Source: Candidatus Binatia bacterium (GTDB lineage: Bacteria > Desulfobacterota > Binatia > Bin18). From it: a DNA stretch of 64,000 nucleotides. The notes beneath the pieces are model-generated. The model saw nothing but the letters and a program-made list of their open reading frames with translations, was not told the origin of the DNA and made no database searches. Shown here one piece after another: positions 7,512-48,711 of the stretch. Where the stretch lies: contig JAJEFA010000001.1 of the NCBI GenBank assembly GCA_022820725.1, forward strand, positions 182,749-246,748. Reading direction: 5' to 3'. Each line of letters opens with the position of its first letter. Position 1 is the stretch's first letter. The position numbers were made by a program, and so were the translations under genes.

Positions 7512-7548
7512 AGAGATACCTCCTCCGAGGAGTCTCCTCTTTCCCACT

Positions 7549-23105: not shown

Positions 23106-23109
23106 TTAG

Positions 23110-23340: not shown

Positions 23341-23358
23341 TTCTGCTACACTGCGCGT

Positions 23359-25008: not shown

Positions 25009-25309
25009 GCATGCCAGACACGCCCGCGGTAGCCTCCCGAGCGTTGCCCACCCACGGCCGAGGCCACGGGCGGCCGTCCCGCTCTTTGCCTTCTGTCTGA
25101 AGATTTTTCGGCAGGGCGATCCTTTTCCCTAAGTCGTTCACCCGCGCGTGCCCAGCCTCGGCCCGTAAGTCCCTGATGTTCTTACACTTGCCCACGACCG
25201 CGCCACCCGCCGTGTTGGCGTGTATGAATATCCTTTCTCAAAAAAGACAATTCTGTGAGTGGGGGAAATACGTTTACCTAGCGCAAATTACGATGCCGTG
25301 TAGCGCGTC

Positions 25310-25380
25310 TCTCTCCTCCTTAAGGAGTGCGGGCTTCCAGCCCGCAAGCGGCCAAGATGGCCGCTCTCCCAGGCGGGGAG
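25310..25380. repeat. Copy of the three-hairpin repeat family (CTCCTTAAGGAG / GCGGGCTTCCAGCCCGC / GCGGCCAAGATGGCCGC / CTCCCAGG) in the kef-hydrolase intergenic region
   Basis: Same hairpin 1 as the copies at 63061-63200 and 63861-64000. Hairpin 2 carries compensatory GGGC/GCCC to GGCC/GGCC changes that preserve the stem. 3' CTCCCAGG motif conserved. Confidence 0.5.
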
Positions 25381-25560
25381 CCACACCCCCCCCGACCGCT
25401 TAGGGCAGGCCCGTATCCTTCCCGACGAGCGCGGACTGGCACGGCTACAACGTATCGTAAACCGCTCTAGCGTTCTTCTTTCACCACTACCGTTGCGCGT
25501 CCCACTTGTGTTCCACAGTATTTTCGCCTACCCGAGTGAGACAACAAAAAGGAGGAAGAT

Positions 25561-26205
25561 ATGGAAGAGCACATCACCTTTCCGGTTGGCGAGGGCGATA
25601 ACACCATCACCCTGGAAGGGCTCCTTTCGACCTCACACCAGGCTCCCGCGCTTGGAGCGGTGCTGTGTCATCCCCATCCGCTGTATGGGGGCGAAATGCA
25701 CAACAACGTAGTGTCAGCGTTGGCCCACGCCTTCCAAAAGGAGAATATCGCCACGCTGCGATTCAATTTCCGTGGGGTGGGACGCAGTGAAGGCACCCAC
25801 GACGAAGGCGAGGCCGAGCGCGAGGATGTGAAAGCGGCGGTCACGGCTCTGCTGGACCGGCAGCCCGTCTCGACCGTCGTGGTTGCCGGCTATTCGTTTG
25901 GCTCGATGGTCGGCCTGCAAGCCGGGGCGGAAGACGACCGCGTCCACCGCCTGATTGGCGTCGCGTTCCCGCTTGGCTTTCGCGACCCGGCATTTCTTGT
26001 CAACGTGACCAAACCGATCCTGCTCATCAGCGGCGACCGGGACAGCTACTCCCCCATCCCCGACCTGACCGAGCTGGTTGCAAAAATATCAGCCCCCAAG
26101 CAGCTCGAAACCCTGAGCGGCGCGGACCATTTCTTTATGGCCAGAGAGGGCGAAGTCGCCCAGGCCGCAGTCTCGTTTCTTCAGCAGACCGAGAGCAAAT
26201 CATGA
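25561..26205 (+). CDS. Alpha/beta-fold hydrolase (COG2945-like)
   Basis: GYSFGSMVG nucleophile elbow, N-terminal HPHPLYGG motif; AAAAAGGAGG Shine-Dalgarno 6 nt upstream of the ATG. Confidence 0.7.
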   Translation: MEEHITFPVGEGDNTITLEGLLSTSHQAPALGAVLCHPHPLYGGEMHNNVVSALAHAFQKENIATLRFNFRGVGRSEGTHDEGEAEREDVKAAVTALLDRQPVSTVVVAGYSFGSMVGLQAGAEDDRVHRLIGVAFPLGFRDPAFLVNVTKPILLISGDRDSYSPIPDLTELVAKISAPKQLETLSGADHFFMAREGEVAQAAVSFLQQTESKS

Positions 26206-26332
26206 TGCTGCTACACAGCATCATGATTTGCTCCAGCGATGCTCCGCCAGTCCGCTCTATGTGTCTGATTTTTCAGGCGATAGCTCCTCGCCTGCATCGC
26301 CCTCCCCCGGTGGGGAGACGGGGGTCGTGGGG

Positions 26333-26746
26333 TCAGTTCACCATCTCCAGCAGGGCCTTCATGACCTTCTGCAAAAACTCTTCAACTTCTTCCAATACCT
26401 GGGTATGACTGGCGGATTGTTTATGGCTGACGGATGGTTCTAGCTTCTCATGGTGCATGACCCACCACGGCACACCATCCCTCGGACCGCCCTCTCGGAG
26501 TCTCAGCTCTATCGCCTTCCCCACAAGCTCTTCAGCGGCCAAAACAATGTGGTCAGAATGGAGGGTGACAGAGCAAACCCGGTCGAATCTAGGCAATTCA
26601 CACCCGGTTTCCGTACGGGGAGGACCCTCATTTGACAAGTCTGCAAGATGTAACGTCTTATCTGATTTGACCACCTCAAGATGAATCTTGCGTAACCGGT
26701 CCTTGATCTCTTCATACATCATGTCCAGTTGCTTCTCCTTGTCCAT
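26333..26746 (-). CDS. Hypothetical protein (about 137 aa), in a lower-GC patch downstream of corC
   Basis: ORF without recognisable motifs. Local GC is visibly lower than its surroundings. Start placed at the MDKEKQLDMMYEE Met. Confidence 0.35.
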   Translation of the reverse strand: MDKEKQLDMMYEEIKDRLRKIHLEVVKSDKTLHLADLSNEGPPRTETGCELPRFDRVCSVTLHSDHIVLAAEELVGKAIELRLREGGPRDGVPWWVMHHEKLEPSVSHKQSASHTQVLEEVEEFLQKVMKALLEMVN

Positions 26747-26821
26747 GTCTGCTTCTCCCTGGCTCCTGGAGTGTGCATCCATTTCCCGAGCGCTTCCATG
26801 AGGGCGGCAAGGGTATGAGAG

Positions 26822-28087
26822 TCAGTGTTTGCTCTCTTCAGGAGGTAGCTCCTCGCCTGCATCGCCCTGGGCAATGCGCATCCGCACCTGGACCGCCCGG
26901 CCGCCTTGCTCCTCAACCACCTCGGCAACCGCGTTTCGGAGGCGGACCTGGTCGCCGACCTTGAGCAGCCGATTCAAGCGGCTGACCAGCAGCCCCGACA
27001 GCGTATCCACATCGGGCGCATACAGATCAAGCCCCAGCTCCCGGTTCACTCGCTCGATCGGCAACTGCCCGCTCACCTTGAAGATATCGGCACCTTCGGG
27101 CACGATTTCCGGCGGCTCGCTGTCAAACTCGTCCTGCACGTCGCCGACAATCTGCTCAACCACGTTCTCCATGGTAATGACACCGACAACCGAACCGAAC
27201 TCATCGTCAACCAGGGCCATCTGCTGGTGGGTGCTCTGCATCTCTCGCAAGAGCCGGCTGATCGGCAGGGTCTCGGGGATATGTCGGATAGGCCGCGCGA
27301 CCGACCTGAGAACGCCATCGTCGTCGCCCGTCAGGCCCAGCAGGTCCTTGACGTGAACCAGCCCGATCACCTCGTCCAGTGACCCGATACACAGCGGAAA
27401 GCGCGTGTGGCGCGTGTCCTTGGCGATTTCCAGGCATTTTTCAAGCGACCAGTGCACATCGAAGAACACCACATCCCGGCGGGCAACCATCACCTGGCGC
27501 GCCAGCATATCGTCAAAATGAAAAACCGCGTTGAGGAGTTGCAGTTCCGAGGCGGACAACTCGCCCGCCTTCCGTCCCAGATGGATATCGGCCCGAATCT
27601 CATCCTCCGTGACGGCGGGCACACCCAGGCCGCCGGTAAAGAAGCCGGTAAACGCCTGCGTGACCCGAATGAGAGGTGCAAGACCTCTCTGCATCAGCGT
27701 CAGCGGCCAGACGATCAGATGCCAGATGGTGCGCCAGTGGGTTGCCCCGTACGTCTTGGGAAGAATCTCGCCCACAAACAGGATGGCAACGGTCAAACCG
27801 ATGGAAAACGCCGGCACCCAGACTGCGCCCAGCATCTGCGCGGCGTACATTCCGCAGAGTGTTGCCCCGGCCGTGTTCGCAATCGTGTTGAGTATCAGGA
27901 TCGCCGAGGTCGGGCGGGCGATGTTCGCCTTCATGGCGATGAACCGCTCGGCCAGGCGGGCGTGTTTCCCCTCTGCCCGCTCGGCCTCAAGCGACCCGAT
28001 ACGGGTCGAGTACAGTGTGGCTTCGAACAGCGAGCACATGCTCGATATCAGAACCGTCAACCCGGCAACGACAAGCAGCATCGTCAT
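26822..28087 (-). CDS. corC: CNNM/CorC-HlyC family Mg2+/Co2+ efflux protein (DUF21, CBS pair, CorC_HlyC)
   Basis: N-terminal DUF21 TM domain, central CBS pair (...VVFFDVHWSLEKCLEIAK...IGLVHVKDLLGL...) and C-terminal CorC_HlyC domain. Start at MTMLLVV behind GGAGGGG. Confidence 0.8.
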   Translation of the reverse strand: MTMLLVVAGLTVLISSMCSLFEATLYSTRIGSLEAERAEGKHARLAERFIAMKANIARPTSAILILNTIANTAGATLCGMYAAQMLGAVWVPAFSIGLTVAILFVGEILPKTYGATHWRTIWHLIVWPLTLMQRGLAPLIRVTQAFTGFFTGGLGVPAVTEDEIRADIHLGRKAGELSASELQLLNAVFHFDDMLARQVMVARRDVVFFDVHWSLEKCLEIAKDTRHTRFPLCIGSLDEVIGLVHVKDLLGLTGDDDGVLRSVARPIRHIPETLPISRLLREMQSTHQQMALVDDEFGSVVGVITMENVVEQIVGDVQDEFDSEPPEIVPEGADIFKVSGQLPIERVNRELGLDLYAPDVDTLSGLLVSRLNRLLKVGDQVRLRNAVAEVVEEQGGRAVQVRMRIAQGDAGEELPPEESKH

Positions 28088-28115
28088 CTTTGCCCCTCCG
28101 CTCTGTGAACCCGAT

Positions 28116-29426
28116 TCATAACAGCGATGAAAACACGGTCGCCAGCCCAAGAAAACTGAAGAAGCCAAAGACATCGGTGACCGTGGTCAGCACGATGGAG
28201 GAGGACTGCGCCGGGTCCTGCCCCATTCTCGCCAGGAGCACGGGGATCAGCGCTCCGGCAACGCCGGCAATGGCCATCGCCAGCACCATCGCCAGGCCGA
28301 TGACGAGCACCAGTCCGGGCGACCCGCTCCACACGTAGACACCGGCACAAGTGACAAGGGCGACGCCCAGACCGTTCACCAGGCCGGCAGCAAATTCCTT
28401 GGTCACGACCTGGGGCCAGTGGCGCAGGGTGATCTCACGCAGGGCCAGCCCGCGCAGAACGACGGCCAGGGCCTGCGCGCCGGTGTTGCCCGATTGACCG
28501 GCCACAACCGGCAACAGGACGGCGAGCGCGGTGAACCGGGAGATCGTATCCTCGAAGACTCCAACCACAGCCGCCGCCAGGAATGCGGTGGCCAGGTTGA
28601 TCTGCAACCAGGGCAGGCGCTTGCGAATGGCGAAGCTCACTTTCGAAAGGGCGCGCTCTTCCTTGCTCGCGCCCGTCATGCTGACGAGGTCGGCGCTGAG
28701 TTCTTCTTCGACCGCGGACACCATTTCGTTGAGCCGGATGATCCCCAGCGGCTTGTTGTCATAGTCGACCACCGGAATGCTGGTCAGCTTGTGGCGCTCC
28801 ATAGTCTCGACGATCTCTTCACGGGTGGTGAATGCGGAGACGGCCACCGGTACCCCGGTGACCAGGGACAGCAGGGTCGTTTCCGCCTCGGCCAGCACCA
28901 CCTCTTGAATGGGAACAGTCCCGGACAGACGCCCGTCGCGGTCCACAATCAACAGATCAAGCACGCGCCGTCGCTGTCGTATCGACCGCAGCCGTTCCAG
29001 GGCCTCCTCGACTGTCATATCAGGCTGAAAAACCGTAATGCGGGGGTCCATGAGCCGGCCGGCACTGTCCGCGGGATGCTGCATGAGAGTGTGCAACTCC
29101 TTCGCCTCTGCCCGCGCCAAACCCGCCAGGAGGTCGTCACAGCGTTGTGTCCCGAGTCCGCCCAACAATGCGCCGGCCTGGGGAGGGTCCAAATTGCGGA
29201 TCAGTTGTCTGCCGTGATCGAGATCGATCTCCGCGAGAATATCCAGGGCCTTTGCCGGCGACAGACGGCGGAATGCTTCGATACACGTTTCCGGCGCCAC
29301 GTGGGAGAGCATCTCATCCGCCTCGGATGGCGTCGAGGTTTCGAGGTGATCCGCCGCTTCCTCCGGATGGCGTTCAAAAAAGTCCCGGGCGAGCAATCGT
29401 TCGACTGCAAGGCTAGCGGTTGGCAT
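28116..29426 (-). CDS. mgtE: Magnesium transporter MgtE
   Basis: MgtE_N domain, CBS pair and a 5-TM C-terminal channel domain (...ALAVLLPVVAGQSGNTGAQALAVVLRGLA...). Confidence 0.85.
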   Translation of the reverse strand: MPTASLAVERLLARDFFERHPEEAADHLETSTPSEADEMLSHVAPETCIEAFRRLSPAKALDILAEIDLDHGRQLIRNLDPPQAGALLGGLGTQRCDDLLAGLARAEAKELHTLMQHPADSAGRLMDPRITVFQPDMTVEEALERLRSIRQRRRVLDLLIVDRDGRLSGTVPIQEVVLAEAETTLLSLVTGVPVAVSAFTTREEIVETMERHKLTSIPVVDYDNKPLGIIRLNEMVSAVEEELSADLVSMTGASKEERALSKVSFAIRKRLPWLQINLATAFLAAAVVGVFEDTISRFTALAVLLPVVAGQSGNTGAQALAVVLRGLALREITLRHWPQVVTKEFAAGLVNGLGVALVTCAGVYVWSGSPGLVLVIGLAMVLAMAIAGVAGALIPVLLARMGQDPAQSSSIVLTTVTDVFGFFSFLGLATVFSSLL

Positions 29427-30255
29427 GGCGCGTCTCTCCCGGCTGATTGGTCACAGGGGAACCGGCACTCGACCCTCCGAACATCTCACTGAGTCCGAGT
29501 GAGTAGAACTCACTGAGGGAGGCCAGCAGGTGCATGGCCGGGGGGCGACTCTTCCGGGTCTCCAGATGTTTGAGGGTATCGGCTCCAATAGTCCCCAGGA
29601 ATGTTCCCTGCGAATCCACAACCGCAATGGGTTCCGGCGCCGCGTGCCTGGCACCCAGCGTCTGGGCGCTGGCATGGGAAGGCATCCCCGGCGTCGTGTC
29701 CAGTTCCAAAGACTCGACAGGCGTATCACGTCTGCTACCAAGCAACTGGCCCGGTGTCACAGCACCCACAAGACGCTGGGAGCGGTCAAGCACGAAGACC
29801 CGAGAGGCGACCGGACCGCCGCTTTCGCTGAGACGGGTCAGCGCTTCTCCTGCCGTGAGGTCGGAGTGGAGCGTGAGCGCCGACGGGTCGGCGAGCGCCC
29901 CGGCCGACTGGGCCGGATACTTCAGCGCTTGATCGAGCGACACCCGAGCAGTGGCCGAAAGACCACCGAGCGCATCTTCCCGGACCGCCGGTTCCAGGTG
30001 GCGCAACAGCGCGGCGGCAATCGACACTGGCACCTGCTCCACGACCCGCGAACGCTCTCCCTCCGGCCAGTGGGCGAGGCATGAACCGGCCAGGACGGGA
30101 GCAAAGCAGGCAAGCACACCGGCAGCGCTCTCGACGGGCGCTGCCTGCAAGGCGGCCACGATTTCACTCGGCGAGAATCCTTCCAACACCCGTGCCGCTT
30201 CCTCGGGGTGACGGTTCATATGCACATATGCCGCCCTTTGCGTAGCCGTCTGCAT
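29413..30255 (-). CDS. Soluble MgtE_N-like plus CBS-domain protein (no membrane domain), translationally coupled to mgtE
   Basis: N-terminal resemblance to the MgtE cytosolic domain followed by a CBS-like segment (VFVLDRSQRLVGAVTPGQLL). Overlaps the mgtE start by 14 nt. Confidence 0.5.
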   Translation of the reverse strand: MQTATQRAAYVHMNRHPEEAARVLEGFSPSEIVAALQAAPVESAAGVLACFAPVLAGSCLAHWPEGERSRVVEQVPVSIAAALLRHLEPAVREDALGGLSATARVSLDQALKYPAQSAGALADPSALTLHSDLTAGEALTRLSESGGPVASRVFVLDRSQRLVGAVTPGQLLGSRRDTPVESLELDTTPGMPSHASAQTLGARHAAPEPIAVVDSQGTFLGTIGADTLKHLETRKSRPPAMHLLASLSEFYSLGLSEMFGGSSAGSPVTNQPGETRHANR

Positions 30256-31070
30256 CAGTCCCTCCTCAGTACTACCGATATTTCGTCACAATACTTTCTT
30301 GCCGGGAGATGCACCTGACCGTCAGCCGCATCAAGCACAATGGACGTGGGGGTGATTTCTCGCACGATGCCTTCAATGCCGGCTACACGCACGACATCGC
30401 CGACCCGGTATGCCTTTGCCGCGTAGTACGAGGCCATGATGTTACTCACAATCGGGCCTGAGCCCAGGCTGAGCGAGAGCGCTACTCCCCCCAGGGTTGC
30501 GGCAATAATGATGAGAATCGTCGTTGTGAAGAGTCCGCTCTCCAGGCCGATTTCCTGCGCCCCAACGAGGAGGGCAACCACAAGGACGGCTATCTGGGCG
30601 ACCCGTCCGAGAACTGACGCATACTCGACGCCGGCCGCCGCCGCCACCCGTGTCGTCCACCGATTGACCAGAATTCCTGCGCCCAGTCCCATAAAGACCA
30701 GCACGACCGCTAACAGGACGCGGGGCAGGTAATAGGCGATACTCTGCAACAGGTCCGTCACGACCGGCAGGGGCAGCTTGTCGATCGCAGCAGCCACGAA
30801 GAACAACAGCACGACCCAGTACACGAGCGTTCCGATGATCCGTGGGGCATCCTCGGCGAGTCTCGTTCCGCTGAGACTTTCAGCCAGACGGAACTGTGTG
30901 TTGATGCGGGCGACAGCCGCCACGATAATCTTTCTCGTGAGGAAACGGGCAATAATCGCCGCAATCCAGCCCACCAACAGCAGGCCGCCCGCGCCCAGGG
31001 CCGCAGGCAGCATCGGAGCGAGACGCTCTGATATGTGCTCCAGGACGTTCGTCCAACTGGAAAAATTCAT
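30255..31070 (-). CDS. Small-conductance mechanosensitive channel (MscS family)
   Basis: 3-TM N-terminus plus MscS beta-domain signature ...YRVGDVVRVAGIEGIVREITPTSIVLDAADGQVHLP. Start at MNFSSW behind AGGAGGAG. Confidence 0.7.
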   Translation of the reverse strand: MNFSSWTNVLEHISERLAPMLPAALGAGGLLLVGWIAAIIARFLTRKIIVAAVARINTQFRLAESLSGTRLAEDAPRIIGTLVYWVVLLFFVAAAIDKLPLPVVTDLLQSIAYYLPRVLLAVVLVFMGLGAGILVNRWTTRVAAAAGVEYASVLGRVAQIAVLVVALLVGAQEIGLESGLFTTTILIIIAATLGGVALSLSLGSGPIVSNIMASYYAAKAYRVGDVVRVAGIEGIVREITPTSIVLDAADGQVHLPARKYCDEISVVLRRD

Positions 31071-31175
31071 GGCTCCTCCTGAAAGGTTTGTCACAGGAAT
31101 CAGGGATTCCGACTACAAAGGTGAAGCAGCAACGCTCATGAAAACAGGAAGTAAGAAAATCCACACATGATGGTA

Positions 31176-31943
31176 TCATGCGGATTCAAAGAAAAGGGTG
31201 AGAGCCCTCTCGAAGCGGCGCTTCAATTCGCTCAGCCGTTTGGAGTCCATAGCCAGGGTTTCCCGCTCAAACCAGGGCGCTGCCAAATAGAGCGAACGGT
31301 TCATCTCAACCTGAATCCAGGGCAGGGGCCTGCCGCCGTAGGTACGCGTAATATAGCCACCCGAAAACGGCTGATTGAGCGTCACTTCGTGTTCTTGCAG
31401 CTCAAAGGCCCGCCGTAAGCAGTCGGCCAGGCGCCGGGCGGTCTCCGGCGGACAGGCCTGACCCCGGGCGTTGCCCAAACAGAAGAGGGGACGGGGTTGG
31501 CCCACGTCGGGCGAAATCTGCGGCCCGACCGCCTGCATGGAATGACAATCAAGGGCCAGCTTGATTGTCGAGTTGTGGACGGCGGCGCGAAGCCGCTGGT
31601 GATACGGTGCATAGTATCGTTCCAGCAGGGTGTCGATTAACGCGGCATCAAGTTCTTGCCCACGCGCGTAAATCTTCTTGCCCACACAGGTCAGCGTCTT
31701 GACCACACCGTCCGGGTTCCGGGGCGGCCGGTCGTCGCGGGCGCGGTTCAGGTCCACGAAGGTACGAGGAATATGCGTGGCGACCACCGCGGCGACTTTT
31801 TGGCCGAGGTCGTATATCTCCCGCACAAAAGGATCGATATCGTCGTGAATATCGAGCGGGTCGAGACACACCCTGTCCTTCACCTCGGCAGGCACCCCCA
31901 TGCCGCCGTGCGGGATGGAAAGCAAGACGGGCAGCGTGTCCAT
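31176..31943 (-). CDS. N-formylglutamate amidohydrolase (FGase)-family protein
   Basis: LSIPHGGMGVPAEV...DLNRARDD... blocks typical of the FGase/zinc-carboxypeptidase-like fold. Start codon overlaps the ggt stop (TAATG). Confidence 0.6.
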   Translation of the reverse strand: MDTLPVLLSIPHGGMGVPAEVKDRVCLDPLDIHDDIDPFVREIYDLGQKVAAVVATHIPRTFVDLNRARDDRPPRNPDGVVKTLTCVGKKIYARGQELDAALIDTLLERYYAPYHQRLRAAVHNSTIKLALDCHSMQAVGPQISPDVGQPRPLFCLGNARGQACPPETARRLADCLRRAFELQEHEVTLNQPFSGGYITRTYGGRPLPWIQVEMNRSLYLAAPWFERETLAMDSKRLSELKRRFERALTLFFESA

Positions 31944-33568
31944 TACAGGCCCCCTGCCGTCCCGTCCCGACGGACTTCGGCCACCCCCTGAAAGCCGTTC
32001 CGCGTCTGGCATTTCAGGACTGCATGAATCGCGCCAAGGTAGAAGGCGTAGGGCTTGCGCCGGTCAATCTTATAGCCCATGTTTTCAAGATAACTGACCA
32101 CGCTGGGATCAAAGCGGTCGGCCTCAATGCTGAGCTTGCCCCCAATAGAACAGTGAAAGCGGGGATGCCGCATGGCTTCATCCATGGACAGCCTGCCATC
32201 ACCGCAGTGGACCAGAAACTGGCCGACCGTTGAAAAGATGCGTTCACTCCCCGGACTGCCCGTCACCATCCAGAGTTTGTCGTCATGAAAAATCAGGGCC
32301 GGCGCAACCGAAGTCCAGGGAACCCCGTTGGGTCTGAGATAAAAGGGATGAGCCGGATTCTTGACCTCAAAGGCATCCATATAATTGTTATAGAGAAAAC
32401 CAAGCTCCGCGGCGGCAGCCTTTGAGCCATAAACCAGCTCTATTGACTGCGTAATCCCAACGGCGTTGCCTTCCGCATCCATAACGGACAGGTGAGTGGT
32501 CTCACTCGGTCCCTCAGGCGGGTCAATCAATGGGAGATGGATATCCATATCGTCCCGAATCGACTTTGCCAGTTCTTTGGCAAACTTCCGGTTGATCATC
32601 TTTTTATCGGGAAACTGGGGGTAGGTATTCGGATCAAACGGACGCTCACGACGTTGCAAAAACGCCTTACGAAAGGTTTCGGCGATAAAGTGATAGGACT
32701 CCTTTGAGCGGCTCCGCAGAAACCTGGACGGCAGGTGGCTGAGCATCAACAGCACGAGCAGCAGCGTGCGCCCGGCGGCAGGCGGAGGAAGGGTGACAAT
32801 AGACAGGTCCCGGTACCGTCTTCTGAGGGCCGGCCGCTCAACCGGCCACGGTATGAGCGCCAGGTCATCCGCGCGCAAAAACCCGTCATTGGCCCGCATG
32901 TCCGCATCAATTTGCTGAGCGATCCTGCCCTGATAAAACGACCGGGGCCCATGAGCGGCGATATGTTCCAGGGTGGCCGCCAGTTCAGGCTGCTTGAAAA
33001 TCTCCCCGGCACCGTACGGCACCTTGCCTTCCTTGAGAAAATAGCGCGCTCCGGAACGTGCCGGGATGGCCAGGAACTGTTCCAGCGAGCGGTCCTGGAG
33101 GTCATGCTGAAGCGGCGTGATCGCATAGCCGTCCTGGGCGATCCGGATGGCCGGTTGTACGACGGTTGACCAATCCAGTTTGCCGTACCGAAAATTGAGA
33201 TAGCCCAGGACGGCCACGGTGCTGGGGACCGTGGTGGCTCGATAGCCAACCGCGTGATCGCCCTTGTCGAACTGACTGATATGGGCGAGCGAGGGCGCGC
33301 GGGTCGAGCCATCGATGGTGATGGTTTTCCCCCGGAGGTGCAGAATGGCCATCGTCTGCCCGCCAATTCCACTGGCCTGCGGTTCGCACACCCCGACCGC
33401 GAGAGCGGCGGCGCAGGCCGCATCGACGGCATTGCCGCCCTGCCGGAGCATTTCGACGCCAGCCTGGGTGGCATCGGGAAAGGCAGTGGCGACCATGCCG
33501 TTTTCGGCAGCCGCCGCTTTTTGATCTGCGGTTGGGGCGAAACGGCCCTCCGAGGTGGCGATCTTCAT
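31943..33568 (-). CDS. ggt: Gamma-glutamyltranspeptidase
   Basis: MVATAFPDATQAGVEMLRQGGNAVDAA... N-terminus and the autoprocessing/catalytic region ...GSETTHLSVMDAEGNAVGITQSIE... (Thr nucleophile motif), about 540 aa. Confidence 0.85.
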   Translation of the reverse strand: MKIATSEGRFAPTADQKAAAAENGMVATAFPDATQAGVEMLRQGGNAVDAACAAALAVGVCEPQASGIGGQTMAILHLRGKTITIDGSTRAPSLAHISQFDKGDHAVGYRATTVPSTVAVLGYLNFRYGKLDWSTVVQPAIRIAQDGYAITPLQHDLQDRSLEQFLAIPARSGARYFLKEGKVPYGAGEIFKQPELAATLEHIAAHGPRSFYQGRIAQQIDADMRANDGFLRADDLALIPWPVERPALRRRYRDLSIVTLPPPAAGRTLLLVLLMLSHLPSRFLRSRSKESYHFIAETFRKAFLQRRERPFDPNTYPQFPDKKMINRKFAKELAKSIRDDMDIHLPLIDPPEGPSETTHLSVMDAEGNAVGITQSIELVYGSKAAAAELGFLYNNYMDAFEVKNPAHPFYLRPNGVPWTSVAPALIFHDDKLWMVTGSPGSERIFSTVGQFLVHCGDGRLSMDEAMRHPRFHCSIGGKLSIEADRFDPSVVSYLENMGYKIDRRKPYAFYLGAIHAVLKCQTRNGFQGVAEVRRDGTAGGL

Positions 33569-35754
33569 GCCTGGAATCCCTCTGCGGCAAGGCGAATGGT
33601 CATCGCCAGGACGGCAGCACGGTCGATTAAGCTGTCGCGCAGAATATACTCGTTGGGGGTCTGCGTCGCGCCGCCGATCGGGCCAAATCCGTCCAGGGCG
33701 GGAATCCGGTCCGGGACGTGACAGATATCAGACGAAGTGTCCCGATGCGCCTGGCAGACTTTGACTTCTAATCGTTTGGCCACCTGTTCGACATGGTCGT
33801 AGAATTCCTGATCCTTTTCGTTATCGACAACAGGAAGCCGCGATACCCGCCTGGACACCCGGACCTGACAGCGCGGCGGGAGATTTCTCCGCGCAATCCC
33901 CCGGATCTGCTCTTCGAGTCGTTCCCCCTGGTCCGGCTCACGAAATTGTACGGAAAGCGCAGTACTCGCAAAGTCGGGAGCCAGGCCATACAGCGTGCGC
34001 CCTTCGAGCTGGGTCGGCTTGATAAAGATGCCGCTCTCTTCGGATGTCAGTCTGTCCCAGGCGGTCAGCTTTTGACACAGGATTTTGATCACGTCAGGAA
34101 ACTTCCCGTTCTCGCCGGTCTTGCTGTTCGATACTTCAATCTGAAAATCACTCCGACCCGAACACGAGGTCACAATGCCACCCTCAAGACTGCCGCTCTT
34201 GAGACCGACGACATAGTGAGAGTTCAGGGCGAGTTCTTCAACGATCTTCCGGCTGAAGCGGCCGCCCAGGGCGTCATCCGTGGTCAGCAGGACACCGCAG
34301 CGGATGCGGTGCAGGCGGCGAGTGAAACGCAGCGCCCGCAGGGCCGCCAGCATGACCGCCAGACCGCCCTTGCTCTCGGTAACTCCCGAACCGTAGAACC
34401 GCCCGCGCTCCTCGCGAAAGGAGACAAAGTCGCGATAGGAATAGAGGGTGTCGAGGTGGGACAGCAGCAGGATATCGTTGCGTTTACTATCGTGATTGGA
34501 GAAGTACAGGACGTTGCCCACTTCGGTCTGCGGATAGACCTGTCTTTTGAATCGCAACTGGCTCAGGACCTTGGAGAGCCAACTGCCGAATTCGTTGACC
34601 CCTTCGGAATTATAGACGTAGGTATCCATTCCAACCATGGAACGCAGGTCGTCTTCCATAGTGGTCAGGTTGCTGCGGATGTGAGACCGCACCTGGACAC
34701 GCAAGGGTTGCGTCTCATCAGGCTTCTTTTCCCGGTTCGGGAGACTGATGACGTTTGGGTCGGGCCGGCCAAAATACCGGACGGCAGCAACATCAAGCAT
34801 GCGGTTGACCAGCGTTTCATAAGTGTAGCCGGCGGTCTGGGCGGCATGCACGTACGACCCGGTTCTCCCCAGACTGGCCATCGAGTTGATTTCCAGGACG
34901 TAGGGCTTGCCGTCAGCGTCCATACGCACATCAATGCGGGAGAAGTCGTACAGCCCCAGCGCATCGAATGAGGCCCGGGCCAACTGACGGAGTTCTTCCG
35001 TCATGGTGTCGGACAGCTTGGCCGGACAGATTTTCTGTACCGGCTGCTGGAGTTTATTGTCCTGGGTCTGAATCGCGTTGGGGTCGCCGCCAAAGTCGAA
35101 TTCAACAATAGGCAGCACCTCCAGGTCCGGGCCGTTGCCGAGCAGGCCCACCGCGAACTCGCGGCCGGCAATAAAGGCTTCGACCAGCGCCTGCTGATGA
35201 TAGTTGTCGATAATCTCCTTAACGGCCTCCCGCAGGTCGTCCTTGTTGTCAACGATCTTGAGACCCATGGAGACGGCTTCCATCTTGGGTTTGACAATGA
35301 CGGGATAGGTGACGCCGTCCATATCGTCGTCCGGCCTGGCAAAAAACCAGAATCCCGGAGTTGCCACACCGTGTTGCTGAAACACGATCTTGGCCATGAT
35401 TTTGTCCAGCGCGACGGCGTGCGCCTGGGGGCCGGAGCCCACATAGGGAACGCCCAGCATTTCCAGCATGGCCGGCATATGGGTGTAACGGCTCTGCCCC
35501 TGGATGCCGTAGGCCATATTAAAGACCATGCCCGGCCGTTCCCCGGCCAACACGCGCGGCATGAAGTCCCGCAACTCATCCGCGACATCGATATTGCCCT
35601 CAACCACGCGGACGTTATGACCGCCCTTTTCCAGGGACGAGGCCACGAGTTCTACGGTATGTGGATTATAGGTTTCCTTGGTCTGCGGGCCGAAGGTGTT
35701 AATCACGTCCGAGGGATGGACTTCCCGCTTGTTGTAGATCACTGCCACTTTCAT
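33565..35754 (-). CDS. Fusion protein: N-terminal D-Ala-D-Ala-ligase-like ATP-grasp domain plus C-terminal M20-family metallopeptidase (ArgE/DapE/CPG2-like) domain
   Basis: N-terminal MKVAVIYNKREV...MLEMLGVPYVGSGPQAHAVALDKIMAKIVFQQHGVATPGF...VIVKPKMEAVSMGLKIV (Ddl-like). C-terminal ...GVTESKGGLAVMLAALRAL... (M20 signature). 4-nt overlap with ggt. Confidence 0.75.
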   Translation of the reverse strand: MKVAVIYNKREVHPSDVINTFGPQTKETYNPHTVELVASSLEKGGHNVRVVEGNIDVADELRDFMPRVLAGERPGMVFNMAYGIQGQSRYTHMPAMLEMLGVPYVGSGPQAHAVALDKIMAKIVFQQHGVATPGFWFFARPDDDMDGVTYPVIVKPKMEAVSMGLKIVDNKDDLREAVKEIIDNYHQQALVEAFIAGREFAVGLLGNGPDLEVLPIVEFDFGGDPNAIQTQDNKLQQPVQKICPAKLSDTMTEELRQLARASFDALGLYDFSRIDVRMDADGKPYVLEINSMASLGRTGSYVHAAQTAGYTYETLVNRMLDVAAVRYFGRPDPNVISLPNREKKPDETQPLRVQVRSHIRSNLTTMEDDLRSMVGMDTYVYNSEGVNEFGSWLSKVLSQLRFKRQVYPQTEVGNVLYFSNHDSKRNDILLLSHLDTLYSYRDFVSFREERGRFYGSGVTESKGGLAVMLAALRALRFTRRLHRIRCGVLLTTDDALGGRFSRKIVEELALNSHYVVGLKSGSLEGGIVTSCSGRSDFQIEVSNSKTGENGKFPDVIKILCQKLTAWDRLTSEESGIFIKPTQLEGRTLYGLAPDFASTALSVQFREPDQGERLEEQIRGIARRNLPPRCQVRVSRRVSRLPVVDNEKDQEFYDHVEQVAKRLEVKVCQAHRDTSSDICHVPDRIPALDGFGPIGGATQTPNEYILRDSLIDRAAVLAMTIRLAAEGFQA

Positions 35755-35901
35755 GGACCTGCTTCTTCTCCTCTGGGAGCGAAAAAACAGGCTTCAGGAG
35801 CCTACCTCAGGTTCGCTCCGCCTTGGCTCCCGCGAAGAAGCGTGACGAACCAAACGCGGCCGGTAGAGCAGCGATTACGACCATAGATATCAGCTTTATT
35901 T

Positions 35902-36939
35902 TTAATAGGCTACTCTTCTCACCGCCTCAAACGGCTGCTCTGCATCCTCGGCCGTGGCGGTGATGGCGTCCAGTGTCTGCCGCAGGTCGTGATTGTTTTG
36001 CTCGTACACCCGCTCGAAGACGCGCAGGTCTTGGAGATAGGTCAGATAGTGCAGGATGACCGCGTTATTGAGCTGCACGGAGGCAAAATCGGAGGTTTGC
36101 GCAACAGCCCCGGGCAGTTGGCGAAATTCTTCCTGGAGCTGGGTGAATACGTCTTTGCGCTGCGCCAGCTTTCCCGCTTCGGGCAAGGCCGAGTCGTATA
36201 ACGCGGTCAGCCGCTGCCGGGCCTGTTCGAGAAAGTGGGAAACGGCCAACTCCTTTTCCCAGGTGGCTCGCAGGTGTCGGGTCAGAGCGTGGGTCTCCCC
36301 GTGCGCTTTGACAAAAAAGGCGATGGCGCCGCGATACCCGGCAAAATTGGCGAGCGATTCGTTAAAGGCCGTCTGCCCGGACAGATAAAACGTATTGTGA
36401 AACAGCTCGTGCAGCACGATATTGGCCAGGGTGACCCCATCATATCCCAGCAGTTGCGGCAGAAGCGGGTCGGCAAACCAGCCCAGAGTACTGAAGGCGG
36501 CCGCGGTCCGAATATAGGTGTCAAACCCCTGCGTCTCCAAACGCCGGGCCTCCGCGTCGGCCTGCGCGCTCTCAAAAAACCCCTTGTAGGAGACCCGGCC
36601 GACAATGGGAAACCACCAGGTATAGGCTTCCAAACGCGTCCGGTGGGCCGCGGTGACCACGTAAATGGTCGGTGGCGAGGGGAGTTCGGACACGCTGCCA
36701 TAACTCCCCCCGACCCGGAAGCCGAGGTCCTGCTCGGCAAAGTCCCGGACGCGTAGGACGAGCCGGAGCTTTTCCTGGGTGGACAGGTCGAGCTGGCCGG
36801 GCTGCCGCAAGATGTCGGCAATCGGTCTGCGGTACCACAGAATTTTTGCCTCTTCATAGCCGGCCCGCAGAATATACAAGGGCGTGCAGGCCGGCAGCAC
36901 GCACAGGCAAGTCAATAGGACCCAATGCCGCACCCGCAT
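35902..36939 (-). CDS. Predicted zinc aminopeptidase lipoprotein (COG4324/DUF2268-like, HExxH)
   Basis: Signal peptide with Cys (LLTCLCVLPACT) and HELFH zinc-binding motif (NIVLHELFHNTFY). Confidence 0.55.
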   Translation of the reverse strand: MRVRHWVLLTCLCVLPACTPLYILRAGYEEAKILWYRRPIADILRQPGQLDLSTQEKLRLVLRVRDFAEQDLGFRVGGSYGSVSELPSPPTIYVVTAAHRTRLEAYTWWFPIVGRVSYKGFFESAQADAEARRLETQGFDTYIRTAAAFSTLGWFADPLLPQLLGYDGVTLANIVLHELFHNTFYLSGQTAFNESLANFAGYRGAIAFFVKAHGETHALTRHLRATWEKELAVSHFLEQARQRLTALYDSALPEAGKLAQRKDVFTQLQEEFRQLPGAVAQTSDFASVQLNNAVILHYLTYLQDLRVFERVYEQNNHDLRQTLDAITATAEDAEQPFEAVRRVAY

Positions 36940-36949
36940 AGCCGCCTCG

Positions 36950-38767
36950 CTATATTTCTTCCAGAACGGGTCCGTCCGTGTGGGCTGGTGCGGTGCCGGC
37001 GGCGTGGGCGTACTGCAATTGGTAGAGGCGCCAGTAAATGCCGCGCTGCGCTATCAATGCCTGATGGGTGCCGACTTCCCGCAGCCGGCCCTTGTGCAGA
37101 ACGATGATGCGGTCGGCATTCTGAATGGTGGAGAAGCGATGCGCAATCACCAGGGTGGTCCGGTTCTGCATCAGCTTGGTCAGCGCATCCTGAATGAGCA
37201 CCTCGGTCTCCGGGTCAACGCTTGAGGTGGCTTCGTCCAAAACCAGAATGGCCGGGTCATAGGCCAAGGCGCGGGCAAACGACAGGAGCTGGCGCTGGCC
37301 GGCGGACAGGTTGGCGCCCCGCTCGTGCAGGTGTTCGTGGTAGCCGCCCGGCAGCTCCCGAATAAAGCCCTCCGCATTCACATGCCGGGCGGCCTGCCGC
37401 AGGTCGTCCGGCGTCAGGTCGGTCCGGCCCAAACTCAGATTGGTGGCCACATCGCCGACAAACAGGAAGACATCCTGCAGCACCACGCCAACCCGGCGGC
37501 GCAGGGCGTGCATATCCCACTCGCGAATATCGACGCCGTCCACCAGGATGCGGCCGCGCTGAATATCATAAAAGCGGTTGAGCAGCTTGCTGATCGTGGT
37601 CTTGCCCGCGCCGGTCGCGCCGACCAGGGCAATGCTCTCACCAGGGGCGACCGAAAAGGACACGTCCCGCAGCACCCATTCCTCCTCGTTGTACGCAAAC
37701 CAGACATGCTCGAAGTCAATCCGGCCCGCCACCTCGTGCGGCCGATGTGCCGCAGGCGGAGAGGTGATCGTGACCGGCGTGTCCAGCAGTTGAAACACGC
37801 GCTCAACCGCGGTCATGGCCGTCTGCATGGTGGTGTATTTGGTACTGAATTCCCGGATCGGCACAAAGAACTTCTGCAGATACTCGATAAAAGCCACCAG
37901 CGTCCCCAGGGCGACCAGACCCTGGCCGACCTGGCCCGCGCCATACCACAGCATAAGCGCAATCGAGATGATGCTCAGCGCCTCGACAATGGAGAACAGA
38001 CTGGCCTCATACATATTGGAGAGGTGGTTGGCGTCGCGGTGGGCGCGATTGCGCTGCTCAAACTCGGCAAACATTTTTCGTTCCTGGGCAAACACCTGTA
38101 CCACCATAATCCCGGACAGGGTTTCCTGCAGAAAGGCGTTGATCCGCGCCAGGCGTTCCCGGATGGTCCGGTAGGTCACCCGCGTCCGGGTCCGAAAAAA
38201 ATTCAGGATGAGCAATAACGGGGGCAGGAGGGCCAGCGTCACGACCGCCAGGTGAAAATCGATGGACAGCATAATCACGACAATGCCCACCAGGGTCAGG
38301 ATGTCCATGAAGATGGTCAGCGTCCCGGCGGAGAACGCCTCGTTAATGGCATCGACATCCGTGGTCAGACGGGTGACCAGGCGCCCGACCGGCGTACGCT
38401 CAAAAAAGCTCGCCGGCAGTTCCTGCACGTGGGTGAACAAGTCGCGCCGCAGATCGGCCAGACTGCGCTGGGCGACCAGCATCGTGGCCTGGAACTGCGC
38501 ATAGAAAAACAGAAACTCGCCGAGCAGGGCGGCGGCAAACAGCAGACCAATGCGCGTCAGCCCCGCAGCGTCCCCCTGCTCAATATACCAATCCACGCCC
38601 AACTTGAGCAGATACGGCTGGGCCAGGAGACAGGCGGAGGTCAGCGGCAGACAGACCACGGCCACGATAAAGGTCGCGCGGTACGGCCGGATATAGACCC
38701 ACAGACGGCGCAGGAGCGCCAGGTCATAGGTTTTGCCGAGGGCGGCTTCGTCTTGTCCCTGGTTCAC
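36950..38767 (-). CDS. ABC exporter, fused permease/ATPase half-transporter (MsbA/multidrug-like), subunit 2
   Basis: 6-TM domain followed by a nucleotide-binding domain with Walker A GATGAGKTT, signature LSAGQRQLL and Walker B ILVLDEATS. Confidence 0.85.
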   Translation of the reverse strand: MNQGQDEAALGKTYDLALLRRLWVYIRPYRATFIVAVVCLPLTSACLLAQPYLLKLGVDWYIEQGDAAGLTRIGLLFAAALLGEFLFFYAQFQATMLVAQRSLADLRRDLFTHVQELPASFFERTPVGRLVTRLTTDVDAINEAFSAGTLTIFMDILTLVGIVVIMLSIDFHLAVVTLALLPPLLLILNFFRTRTRVTYRTIRERLARINAFLQETLSGIMVVQVFAQERKMFAEFEQRNRAHRDANHLSNMYEASLFSIVEALSIISIALMLWYGAGQVGQGLVALGTLVAFIEYLQKFFVPIREFSTKYTTMQTAMTAVERVFQLLDTPVTITSPPAAHRPHEVAGRIDFEHVWFAYNEEEWVLRDVSFSVAPGESIALVGATGAGKTTISKLLNRFYDIQRGRILVDGVDIREWDMHALRRRVGVVLQDVFLFVGDVATNLSLGRTDLTPDDLRQAARHVNAEGFIRELPGGYHEHLHERGANLSAGQRQLLSFARALAYDPAILVLDEATSSVDPETEVLIQDALTKLMQNRTTLVIAHRFSTIQNADRIIVLHKGRLREVGTHQALIAQRGIYWRLYQLQYAHAAGTAPAHTDGPVLEEI

Positions 38768-40551
38768 AGTTCCGCCAGTTCCTCTTCGAGCGCCTGATCC
38801 TGAAAGAGTTCCGTATACATGCTCCCCCGCTCGACCAACTCCGTGTGCGTTCCCATCTCGACGATCCGTCCCGCATCCAGGACAACGATGAAGTCGGCGT
38901 CCCTGATGGCCGACACCCGGTGGGAAATGATCAGCACGGTCTTTTCCGTGGTGCTCGTCCGCAGCGCCTGGAGAATCTTCCCCTCCGTGGTCACATCAAC
39001 GCTGGACAGCGCGCAGTCCAGGACGAGGATGGGCGTGTCGGCCAGCAAGGCCCGGGACAGCGTCAGGCGCTGCTTTTGCCCGCCCGAGAGCGTCATCCCC
39101 CGCTCACCGATGACGGTCTCATACCCTTTGGGAAAATCCTCAATCTCACCGTCAACACTGGCCAGGACGGCCGTCCGGCGCACATCGCCGCCGTCCACCT
39201 CGGGCTGAGAAAAGGCGATATTGTCTTCAATGCGGGCCGAAAAGAGAAACGGATCCTGGGGCACAAAACCGATGCAGCGCCGGAGCTCGGCCAGTGAAAA
39301 AAGCCGAATATCCCGTCCGTCAATGGTGATGGCACCGCGTGTGACATCGAACAGACGCGGCAGCAGATGGACCAGGGTACTCTTGCCCGCGCCCATACGC
39401 CCGACAATGCCGACGGTTTTTCCGGCCGGGACCGTAAACGTAATATCGTGCAGGACCGTCCGTCCGTCAGGGACATGCCCATTACCCGCCTCGCCGCCCG
39501 GCCTCCGGTCATCAAGCGGATAGGCAAAATCCACGTGCCGAAACCCAATCTCGCCCCGCACCGTTTGCCCGCTCCGGCTCGCGCCGTTCTCCCGACCGTC
39601 AACGATATCGGGCCGGGTCTGCCAGATCACCTCCAGCCGTTGCATGGCCGCTTTGCCACGCTGATACAGGGAGATCAGCCAGCCCATGGCCATGGTCGGC
39701 CAGGCCAGCAGGTGGAGGTAACCCATAAACGCCACCAGGTCGCCCAAACTGAGCCGGCCGGCAATGACCTGTGAGCCGCCGTACCACAACACGACCAGCA
39801 GCCCGGTTCCGGATATGCCCTTCATCAGCGGCGGGAACAGGCCGCGCAGGCGGGCCAGGGCAATATTCTCGGTCTTGAAGCGCTCATTCAGCCCGCCAAA
39901 GACGCCGTTCTGCCAGGCCTCACGCACATAGGCACGAATGACCGGCATACCGCTGACGCTCTCCTGGACGCGACTCGACAGGTCGGCCAGACCGGCCTGC
40001 ACGTTGAGTGTACGCTCCATGAGCTGGCGGCTCATCGCCCTGACCACCAGAAACATGAAGGGATACGGAGCGATCGCCAACAGGGTCAGGATCGGGTCCA
40101 TGGCCAGCATGGCCGCCATGGCATACACGTAATACAGCGGGGTGTTGAGGATATTAATGATGCCCAGGCCGAGCAGCAGACGCACCGCGGTCACGTCGTT
40201 GACCAGGCGTGACATCAGGTCGCCGATGGGCTGGCGCTGGTAATAGCTCAGGGAGAGGGTCTGTAGATGGGCAAACAACTCGTTGCGGAGTTGGTACTCG
40301 ATATCCCGCCCGACGTTGAAGATCAGAAAGCGCGAAAAAGAGCGGACAACCCCCTGGAGCAGGGCGATCCCGATAATGAGCAGGACCGTAGACACGATCT
40401 CGCGGACCGGGCGGCCGTGCTCGATCCCTTCAACCGCCTGCTTGAGCAGCCACGGGATGGACATCGCCAGGGTCGCCGTCATCACCAGACAGGCGATGCC
40501 GCGCATATACCGATACCGGTATTGATAAATATAGCCCCACAGACGTTGCAT
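38764..40551 (-). CDS. ABC exporter, fused permease/ATPase half-transporter, subunit 1 (heterodimer partner)
   Basis: TM domain plus NBD (GRMGAGKSTL, LSGGQKQRL, ILVLDCALS); 4-nt overlap with the downstream subunit. Confidence 0.85.
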   Translation of the reverse strand: MQRLWGYIYQYRYRYMRGIACLVMTATLAMSIPWLLKQAVEGIEHGRPVREIVSTVLLIIGIALLQGVVRSFSRFLIFNVGRDIEYQLRNELFAHLQTLSLSYYQRQPIGDLMSRLVNDVTAVRLLLGLGIINILNTPLYYVYAMAAMLAMDPILTLLAIAPYPFMFLVVRAMSRQLMERTLNVQAGLADLSSRVQESVSGMPVIRAYVREAWQNGVFGGLNERFKTENIALARLRGLFPPLMKGISGTGLLVVLWYGGSQVIAGRLSLGDLVAFMGYLHLLAWPTMAMGWLISLYQRGKAAMQRLEVIWQTRPDIVDGRENGASRSGQTVRGEIGFRHVDFAYPLDDRRPGGEAGNGHVPDGRTVLHDITFTVPAGKTVGIVGRMGAGKSTLVHLLPRLFDVTRGAITIDGRDIRLFSLAELRRCIGFVPQDPFLFSARIEDNIAFSQPEVDGGDVRRTAVLASVDGEIEDFPKGYETVIGERGMTLSGGQKQRLTLSRALLADTPILVLDCALSSVDVTTEGKILQALRTSTTEKTVLIISHRVSAIRDADFIVVLDAGRIVEMGTHTELVERGSMYTELFQDQALEEELAEL

Positions 40552-48511: not shown

Positions 48512-48711
48512 ACGAGACAATCCTCTTCCAAATTTATACACACGAGGATGACTTGTGTTGTATCTTCTACGCCATTGGAACCAACGTCGAAGAGGTTGAA
48601 GGGTCTGTCTGAACGTTATACCTACGCTAAAGCTGAGGCGGGATACAGGGCCGTCTTATTCCGCTCCCTTTGATCCCGTTGCACCCCCCACTCTGCTGTA
48701 CGCTGACGTTG

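Follow-up and report, generated by a model that had tools for sequence, protein, structure and literature searches.

A three-gene module of a Ddl-like/M20-like fusion ligase, a GGT-like and an FGase-like protein in Candidatus Binatia and other Bacteria and Archaea, with a possible role in glutamate-type solute turnover

Closest described systems and the conserved unit

Systems in which an ATP-grasp amidoligase is combined with dedicated hydrolases are of a known kind. In glutathionylspermidine synthetase/amidase, an ATP-dependent amide ligase and a hydrolase-family domain for the same bond are held in one polypeptide. Among the osmolyte clusters, asnO-ngg with an M42 peptidase leads to N-acetylglutaminylglutamine amide, ablAB leads to N-epsilon-acetyl-beta-lysine, and the ectoine cluster of Nitrosopumilus maritimus is accompanied by an MscS gene. 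The locus described here lies in a stretch of 64,000 nucleotides from a Candidatus Binatia bacterium (GenBank assembly GCA_022820725.1, contig JAJEFA010000001.1, positions 182,749 to 246,748 of the forward strand), which was analysed at its full length and is called the window (position 1 is its first letter). It contains a module of three genes, encoding a fusion of a Ddl-like (D-alanine-D-alanine ligase-like) ATP-grasp ligase and an M20-like domain (designated FUS), a gamma-glutamyltranspeptidase-like (GGT-like) protein and an N-formylglutamate amidohydrolase-like (FGase-like) protein, respectively. Its distinctive features are the fused pseudo-M20 domain, a clade of GGT-like proteins with a new pocket and an operon link to Mg2+, K+ and mechanosensitive transport. 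FUS has the one-polypeptide arrangement of glutathionylspermidine synthetase/amidase, but in FUS the domain of hydrolase type seems to be inactive, and the hydrolases are the products of separate downstream genes. By analogy, the module may also be compared with the osmolyte clusters, in that glutamate-type substrates would be joined into an amide with ATP, a dedicated peptidase is at hand, variant loci have an aminomutase and a mechanosensitive channel is adjacent; unlike in those clusters, GNAT-Ngg, AsnO, AblB and EctABC were not found in the Pfam annotation of the module neighbourhoods, and the enzyme families differ, so that no membership is implied.

The anchor gene of the module is that of FUS (33565..35754, minus strand, 729 aa), identified by Pfam, NCBIfam, its homologues and Foldseek. 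The ATP-grasp domain (aa 1-328, 34771..35754) was delimited by residue columns, and the M20-like domain (aa 350-729, 33568..34707) by alignment to the carboxypeptidase CPG2, column counts and fold; the corresponding Pfam domains are Dala_Dala_lig_C (aa 140-320) and Peptidase_M20 (aa 429-720). On the same strand follow the genes of the GGT-family Ntn amidohydrolase (31943..33568, 541 aa; PF01019, E 2.2e-116) and of the FGase-family metallo-amidohydrolase (31176..31943, 255 aa from the TAATG start; PF05013, E 6.5e-55), of which the longest version of the open reading frame (ORF) extends to 32012. As read from the DNA, FUS and the GGT-like gene overlap by 4 nt (gcATGAag), and the GGT-like and FGase-like genes by 1 nt (ctgTAATGgac). 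A preliminary description of this DNA had proposed a tightly packed operon of four minus-strand genes, the fourth being a PF10023/COG4324 lipoprotein aminopeptidase (35902..36939, minus strand; PF10023 'Aminopep', E 1.5e-81). All four ORFs lie at the coordinates it gave, both overlaps are present, and a profile-HMM check with Pfam agrees with the domain identities of all four proteins. Tight packing holds for the trio; the aminopeptidase gene is separated from FUS by 147 nt (35755..35901) and from the upstream ATP-binding cassette (ABC) exporter gene by 10 nt, so it is packed with the exporters and not with the trio.

FUS has more than 1650 database relatives, many of them full length and 52-96% identical, which are entered in public records only as 'D-alanine-D-alanine ligase' or 'M20/M25/M40 family metallo-hydrolase'. 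The proteins of the window are 96-97% identical to those of Candidatus Binatia metagenome-assembled genomes (MAGs), including one 4.6-Mb chromosome. In a scan with one genome per species, 392 genomes contained a FUS relative, and the best 80 loci were analysed further by translating all their ORFs, searching them with the window proteins and clustering them. The bacterial loci among these belong to Binatia, KSB1, Chloroflexi, Gemmatimonadota, Latescibacterota, Chitinivibrionales, Calditrichota, Ignavibacteria, Nitrospinota, marine Nitrosomonas and Planctomycetota, and the archaeal ones (46 of the 80) to Nitrosopumilaceae and other Nitrososphaeria, i.e. ammonia-oxidising archaea. Cultured carriers are Nitrosopumilus ureiphilus and Nitrosopumilus sp. 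K4.

As a rule, FUS, the GGT-like gene and the FGase-like gene follow one another in this order on the same strand, an arrangement that was found in at least 10 bacterial phyla and many Nitrosopumilaceae. The position of the GGT-like gene was counted in 64 related loci that extend for 1.8 kb or more downstream: it follows FUS directly in 37, lies downstream with inserted genes in 12, stands elsewhere in the locus in 4 and is missing in 11. The FGase-like gene comes directly after the GGT-like gene in 41 of the 42 loci holding it. The trio was also seen with independent gene calls and precomputed Pfam annotation in Candidatus Magnetomorum HK-1 and two more metagenomic contigs. The juxtaposition of the three genes is thus far beyond chance, and the co-occurrence of the fusion with ggt-type and FGase-type genes in other genomes, which the preliminary description had named as a check, is borne out across Bacteria and Archaea. 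The four-gene unit did not stand the same survey: the COG4324 aminopeptidase and the ABC pair occur only in the near-identical Binatia loci L001 and L003, and the aminopeptidase is absent from the other 80-odd loci examined. The conserved unit is therefore one of three genes, FUS, GGT-like and FGase-like, forming a cytoplasmic module. Full-text literature searches, the coverage of which did not extend to the ATP-grasp amidoligase neighbourhood survey of Iyer et al. 2009, returned no paper on the trio or its domain combination, and no curated family model describing the module was found. The combination of one ligase with several amidohydrolases outside any standard named pathway, as first noted from the sequence, is a real module whose function has no name.

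Several single loci deviate from this pattern. In Candidatus Magnetomorum HK-1 (L083, 6850-8289), a methyl-accepting chemotaxis gene lies between the GGT-like and FGase-like genes, and genes of a PAS protein and a histidine kinase follow. A Gemmatimonadales MAG (L009, 1468-3456) has a second fusion just upstream of FUS, with a methyltransferase-like N-terminus and a Ddl-like ATP-grasp domain. In one trio locus (L085, 12640-16263), AIRS/AIRS_C (PurM-like), Rce1-like protease and M1 aminopeptidase genes come after the FGase-like gene, and in another (L086, 2368-3609) an MgtC-family gene lies upstream. Rfam searches of eight related loci gave as their sole match a piece of a group II intron (domains D1-D4, RF02001, 38.8 bits) on an uncultured bacterium contig (L008, 3128-3216), 2.5 kb upstream of FUS, and no riboswitch. 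A locus labelled 'uncultured Enterobacteriaceae' (L002) has a FUS 97% identical to that of Binatia and is therefore probably mis-binned. The FUS sequences of Nitrosomonas, Nitrospinota and Planctomycetota MAGs (L040, L048, L070, L075, L073 and L077) are 64-78% mutually identical, and several of these MAGs carry a shared OFTM isolate prefix; the identity reflects either recent transfer among marine taxa or binning cross-talk.

The fusion ligase and its two partners

No curated NCBIfam model reached its cutoff for FUS, the GGT-like protein, the FGase-like protein or the aminopeptidase. The solved structures closest to the ligase half of FUS are those of the Ddl/VanA family, with about 25-28% identity and a Foldseek TM of about 0.75-0.8, and both fold and catalytic core are shared (equivalents of K144, E148, K215, R255, D257, E270 and N272). 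In 78 aligned FUS sequences, the ATP-grasp catalytic residues K155, E159, K234, R273, D275, E288 and N290 are invariant (78/78), as are N79, Y82, Q85, R89, Y90, T91 and H92 of a family-specific loop. The ligase domain, with a mean pairwise identity of 64%, is far better conserved than the M20-like domain, with 44%. The ligase half of FUS is predicted to be an active ATP-dependent carboxylate-amine ligase.

FUS departs from the Ddl/VanA family in other respects. Its scores lie below all Ddl and Van cutoffs (NF002378, 159.1 bits against a cutoff of 243; TIGR01205, 140.6 against 245.65), and it has in addition the invariant QSRYTH loop and the M20-like fusion. The two positions for D-Ala specificity, which we take to correspond to S150 and Y216 of E. 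coli DdlB from an HMMER alignment to P. aeruginosa DdlB and the DdlB numbering, are not kept, being V/T/I and M/K/L/V, respectively. FUS is also found in archaea without murein. Because of the scores below cutoff, the lost specificity residues and the murein-less carriers, the ATP-grasp domain of FUS is not a canonical Ddl, a finding that the preliminary description had named as one that would speak against its reading, and a peptidoglycan role was rejected on the cutoffs, residues, taxa and context. The D-amino-acid peptide that had been proposed as a product found no backing: the D-Ala-binding residues are not conserved, and no racemase recurs in the FUS neighbourhoods that would point to a D-amino acid.

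The M20-like half was matched by Foldseek to CPG2 (1cg2) and to 6xj5 with E values from 1e-23 to 6e-24 and a TM (target) of 0.74-0.75 over about 385 columns. In the structure model of FUS (mean pLDDT 75, pTM 0.52), the Ddl and CPG2 folds were matched separately, and both were recovered with an inter-domain geometry that is not reliable, so no claim of channelling is drawn from the model. The domain has the catalytic plus dimerisation domain fold of the CPG2/'glutamate carboxypeptidase' branch of M20 and keeps the HxD motif and the GxG..KGG loop. Its metal site was compared by HMMER alignment to CPG2 and by counts in the 78 FUS sequences. The position of CPG2 H112 (H433 in FUS) is His in 66/78, and that of the bridging D141 is Glu in 61/78 and Arg in 12/78. 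The position of E176 is Ser, Thr or Ala and never acidic, that of E200 (K519 in FUS) is Lys in 62/78 and Arg in 5/78, and that of H385 (698 in FUS) is Arg in 46/78, Gly in 20/78 and His in only 2/78, with Q also seen. At the general base E175, the residue is Asp in 60/78 and Glu in 11/78, i.e. acidic but mostly shortened. CPG2 has five zinc ligands, of which three are thus exchanged in FUS, two for basic residues (K519; R or G at 698), and the bridging Asp has become Glu or Arg. In a side-by-side alignment, stand-alone M20 neighbours keep HMDTV, GDMKGG, DEE, AEC, DHTPEE and all five ligands. Given the loss of the canonical metal ligands, the M20-like domain is probably non-catalytic and not a peptidase, contrary to the peptidase activity first assigned to it, and a pseudo-peptidase serving binding, dimerisation or regulation is expected. 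FUS would in that case be a clear example of a metallopeptidase domain turned pseudo-enzyme inside a ligase.

The GGT-like protein scored 390 bits with PF01019 (cutoff 27), 356.1 bits with TIGR00066 (just under the cutoff of 357.85) and 245 bits with the E. coli-type model NF007187 (cutoff 990). It shares with E. coli Ggt (Ntn family T03) full-length homology (E 2e-71), the autoprocessing and nucleophile Thr and the TTH motif; the nucleophile Thr357 (codon at 32498-32500) aligns to E. coli T391 and is present in 52/52 orthologues. In E. coli GGT, R114, N411, Q430 and D433 bind the alpha-amino and alpha-carboxylate groups of the gamma-glutamyl moiety, with D433 at the alpha-amino group. Unlike E. 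coli Ggt, the GGT-like protein is without a signal peptide and has an invariant set of its own (R90, E377, Y396, A/S399 and S441): N411 is replaced by E377, Q430 by Y396, D433 by A399 (A/S) and G484 by S441, the position of R114 is S/T, and an Arg (R90) is shifted by two positions. These pocket substitutions are near-invariant in the 52 orthologues. The kept nucleophile and the swapped glutamyl-binding residues point to an active-looking Ntn amidohydrolase with a remodelled acyl pocket. A gamma-glutamyl substrate, as originally suggested, is therefore backed in part: the partner proteins come from glutamate-handling families, but the residues that hold the alpha-amino group of a free gamma-glutamyl moiety are missing. 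Speculatively, the pocket might fit a beta-glutamyl (3-aminoglutaryl) group, because the distance from carboxylate to scissile carbonyl would be the same as in a gamma-glutamyl group, with the amino group one carbon closer. CapD is among the solved relatives of the GGT-like protein.

The FGase-like protein matched PF05013 with 187 bits over profile positions 2-219 of 219, and its only solved relative is 2q7s (E 6e-12). As in HutG, a member of the same Pfam family, the PHxG, DxNR, H and E motifs are conserved (PHxG, DxNR, CH and E213 in 46 orthologues). Unlike HutG, it is far below the equivalog cutoff (TIGR02017, 111.2 bits, 40% of 278.75), and no hut genes were found in its neighbourhood in the window; a role in the hut pathway was rejected on this cutoff and context.

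Variant loci, ion-transport context and possible function

The strongest pointers to a function, neither of them mentioned in the preliminary description, are a gene of the glutamate 2,3-aminomutase type in variant loci and the ion-transporter genes that recur near the module. In six loci (type B: L014, L015, L016, L023, the Aminicenantes chromosome L082 and the Latescibacteria contig L084), a KamA-family radical-SAM gene and an intact CPG2-like M20 gene precede FUS, instead of the GGT-like and FGase-like genes after it that define type A. Type-B loci were found in Aminicenantes, Latescibacteria, Gemmatimonadota, Ignavibacteria and others, and in L084 a GGT-like gene of the same subfamily (E377 and Y396 signature) lies 4 kb away. 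The best model for the type-B KamA-family proteins is TIGR04368 (glutamate 2,3-aminomutase), with 573.8, 584.9 and 594.9 bits (cutoff 650), ahead of lysine aminomutase (418-441 bits) by about 145-165 bits. Glutamate 2,3-aminomutase makes beta-glutamate. A split of the two locus types into aerobes and anaerobes was considered and rejected, since type-A loci are also present in Magnetomorum, KSB1 and Chitinivibrionales.

Ion-transport genes stand near the module in 6/8 loci of Nitrospinota, 4/4 of Nitrosomonas and 21/46 of Nitrososphaeria, as well as in Binatia, Gemmatimonadota and Planctomycetota, i.e. in six lineages in total. The recurrent neighbours include three non-homologous families of Mg2+ transporters (MgtE, CorA and CNNM/CorC), together with MscS-type channels, a voltage-gated-type K+ channel, Na+/H+ exchangers and a CDF protein. 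In many Nitrosopumilaceae, CNNM, CorA and K+ channel genes sit between FUS and the GGT-like gene, and the FUS of N. ureiphilus is neighboured by genes of a CBS-Na+/H+ exchanger, an SDF-family (glutamate/aspartate-type) symporter, an ion channel, Usp and CNNM. Directly downstream of the module in the window lie co-directional ion-homeostasis genes (26822..31094, minus strand), assigned by Pfam as MscS-like (30255-31094), soluble MgtE_N+CBS (29413-30255), MgtE (28116-29426) and CNNM/CorC (26822-28174). The order MscS, MgtE_N/CBS, MgtE recurs beside the module in Nitrospinota (L049, L066 and L079).

From these data, the module is proposed to be a synthesis and turnover cycle for an amide of glutamate or beta-glutamate that is tied to osmotic and cation homeostasis, to which we give a probability of about 40%. 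In such a cycle, FUS would spend ATP in joining a glutamate-type acid (L-glutamate or beta-glutamate) to an amine partner, and the product would be a small amide, a dipeptide or a short oligomer. The dead CPG2-like domain may retain a pocket for glutamate or the product and help to deliver the substrate, to exert feedback control or to form dimers. The GGT-like Ntn hydrolase would cleave the product from the acyl side and the FGase-like metallohydrolase from the N-acyl-glutamate side, and in type-B loci the intact M20 would hydrolyse it. When osmotic or ionic conditions shift, the cycle would then determine how large the pool of free (beta-)glutamate is, and with it that of the K+/Mg2+ counter-ions. 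The presence of Mg2+ transporter, MscS and K+ channel genes beside the module or within it would thereby be explained.

The co-conservation of the trio, the invariant ligase core, the degenerate metal site of the M20-like domain, the aminomutase loci, the ion-transporter context, the high beta-glutamate level of N. maritimus and the origin of all the hydrolase relatives in glutamate-directed families (CPG2/'glutamate carboxypeptidase', GGT and N-formylglutamate amidohydrolase) argue for the proposed cycle. Several points weigh against it. The chemistry is read throughout from family membership and gene context, and two hydrolases for one bond are not obviously necessary. The type-B aminomutase-like proteins are under the equivalog cutoff, which makes beta-glutamate production only putative, and in most type-A loci the 10 kb around the module hold no aminomutase. 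The FUS gene of cultured N. ureiphilus is without GGT or FGase nearby, and N. maritimus SCM1 was not among the best 120 matches of the archaeal FUS search. Several phyla represented by short contigs lack ion-transporter neighbours, and the archaeal part of this signal is partly shared ancestry. The beta-glutamate measurement, moreover, comes from N. maritimus, whereas the window is from a member of the Binatia.

As to the organisms, N. maritimus SCM1 was found to contain about 730 mM beta-glutamic acid, more than of any other metabolite identified in it (Heal et al. 2021, PMC8269262), and in the literature searched there was no paper on the genes behind this pool. For most ammonia-oxidising archaea, nothing but ectoine has been identified as an osmolyte, and in N. 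adriaticus and Nitrospina gracilis glutamic acid is the dominant amino acid of the endometabolome (Bayer et al., PMC11428151); the ectoine cluster and MscS channels of these archaea are mentioned in the literature. The trio would fit this osmolyte gap in three ways, by its glutamate-handling families, by the aminomutase-like link in some genomes and by its setting of Mg2+, K+ and mechanosensitive genes. In a bolder form, which we consider doubtful, the module would supply the so far missing genes for the pool of (beta-)glutamate that marine nitrifiers and further microbes of saline habitats use as osmolyte, in which the ATP-grasp ligase would reversibly lock the solute, the dead CPG2-like domain would sense or bind it, the two hydrolases would release it, and the operon would wire these steps to Mg2+/K+ transport and mechanosensitive channels. 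If true, this would be a new compatible-solute buffering system common to Bacteria and Archaea. The module deserves experiments, being a concrete candidate where the physiology of marine nitrifiers still has a question open.

Among the alternatives, the best surviving one, though unlikely, is a storage polymer. FUS would act iteratively like cyanophycin synthetase or RimK and build an intracellular oligo- or poly-(gamma/beta)-glutamyl chain as an osmotically silent, cation-binding reserve, which would be trimmed by the GGT-like protein from the N-terminal acyl end and by the FGase-like protein or an M20 from the C-terminal glutamate end. Two exo-hydrolases of opposite recognition suit a chain better than a dipeptide, and a polyanion would explain the repeated Mg2+ transporter context. 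Poly-gamma-glutamate is degraded by B. subtilis GGT, by CapD, which belongs to the solved relatives noted above, and by PghP, which has an FGase/M14-like fold. The nearest ligase relatives are, however, Ddls that form dipeptides, FUS gives no sign of processivity, and no such polymer was reported for these organisms in the literature searched.

The original reading, a translationally coupled four-gene operon that builds and trims a gamma-glutamyl or D-amino-acid peptide or tag with the M20 and COG4324 proteins as active trimming peptidases, is improbable. Its domain architecture and overlaps are real, and a ligase with hydrolases is consistent with building and processing, but it is partly refuted by the neighbourhood survey, in which the aminopeptidase, a predicted exported lipoprotein, is not co-conserved outside Binatia. 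The degenerate metal site of the M20-like half, the lost D-Ala residues of the ligase half and the GGT-like pocket without an equivalent of D433 also speak against it.

A remodelling of cofactor tails has a similarly slim chance. Here FUS would add glutamate to a tail of the F420, folate or methanopterin type, as CofF and MptN do, and the hydrolases would shorten it. Among solved structures the M20-like domain is nearest to CPG2, which acts on folate as a glutamate carboxypeptidase, and the partner enzymes are from glutamate-directed families. CofF and MptN, however, are of the RimK type and not of the Ddl type, the genes recurring in the neighbourhoods are those of ion transporters and not of cofactor biosynthesis, and the type-B aminomutase-like partner would be left unexplained.

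Little probability was also given to a glutathione-like cycle, in which the Ddl-like ATP-grasp domain would act as the synthetase module of GshF, GGT would remove the gamma-glutamyl group and M20 or FGase would split the dipeptide. The Ddl-like ATP-grasp of GshF, GGT and an M20 Cys-Gly dipeptidase are the enzyme classes of glutathione synthesis and breakdown, and all three are present in the module. Yet no gene of the gamma-glutamylcysteine-ligase type was found in any neighbourhood surveyed, the GGT-like protein is without the alpha-amino-binding residue, the M20-like domain is degenerate, and the ion-transport and aminomutase contexts would have no explanation.

A chance housekeeping set of canonical D-Ala-D-Ala ligase, separate peptidase, glutathione GGT and HutG, for which the automatic public-record names speak, is scarcely credible and was rejected, since all equivalog cutoffs are missed (Ddl 159 vs 243, HutG 111 vs 279, GGT 356.1 vs 357.85), archaea without murein carry the module, synteny is kept across domains, there is no hut context and the specificity residues are lost. 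It follows that automatic names such as 'D-alanine--D-alanine ligase', 'M20 family metallo-hydrolase' and 'gamma-glutamyltransferase' are misleading for hundreds of genomes.

Flanking genes and other features of the window

The module lies in a 17-kb run of co-directional genes, with exopolysaccharide genes and two ABC half-transporters upstream. A terminator-like hairpin (31164..31182, minus strand) with an 8-bp stem and a T-rich tail, found by consensus scan and sequence reading, overlaps the stop codon of the FGase-like gene and may mark the 3' end of a three-gene transcript. At the other end, the 147-nt intergenic gap on the minus strand separates the trio from the aminopeptidase and ABC genes. 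A sigma-70 scan gave no promoter-like match in this gap, and Rfam at gathering thresholds gave no riboswitch or leader RNA anywhere in the window, the gap included.

As read from its translation, the aminopeptidase has an N-terminus of the lipoprotein type that ends in LPAC, and a HELFH motif. It is a predicted exported lipoprotein, and FUS, the GGT-like protein and the FGase-like protein are without signal peptides. The two half-size ABC exporter genes upstream (36950-38767 and 38764-40551, minus strand; Pfam ABC_membrane and ABC_tran) are below every NCBIfam model cutoff over 36950..40551, and the pair comes after a Wzy_C/O-antigen-ligase-like gene. The aminopeptidase is a lineage-specific neighbour, the ABC exporters are likewise unrelated to the module, and the aminopeptidase and ABC pair (35902-40551) may be a unit of their own for export and processing that has become attached to the exopolysaccharide cluster. 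Within this glycosyltransferase/methyltransferase (exopolysaccharide) cluster, a 582-aa ORF (46793-48541, minus strand) has no Pfam or NCBIfam match.

A divergent KamA-family radical-SAM protein of 476 aa is also encoded in the window (6117-7547, minus strand). It scored 137.8 bits with TIGR00238 (cutoff 199.2), had no Pfam match at E<1e-4, and has homologues at least 70% identical in Ectothiorhodospira, Thiohalobacter and Thioalbus, pointing to an aminomutase-like clade that is highly conserved and as yet uncharacterised. The protein was considered as an in-genome aminomutase partner of the module and dropped as probably unrelated because of its different clade, its different taxonomic distribution and its distance of 24 kb. 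Between this gene and the module, the stretch 22107-31094 is dense in ion-homeostasis genes, and includes, besides those described above, a Usp-like gene (22107-23105) and a Na+/H+ exchanger gene with TrkA_N (23359-25008, plus strand).

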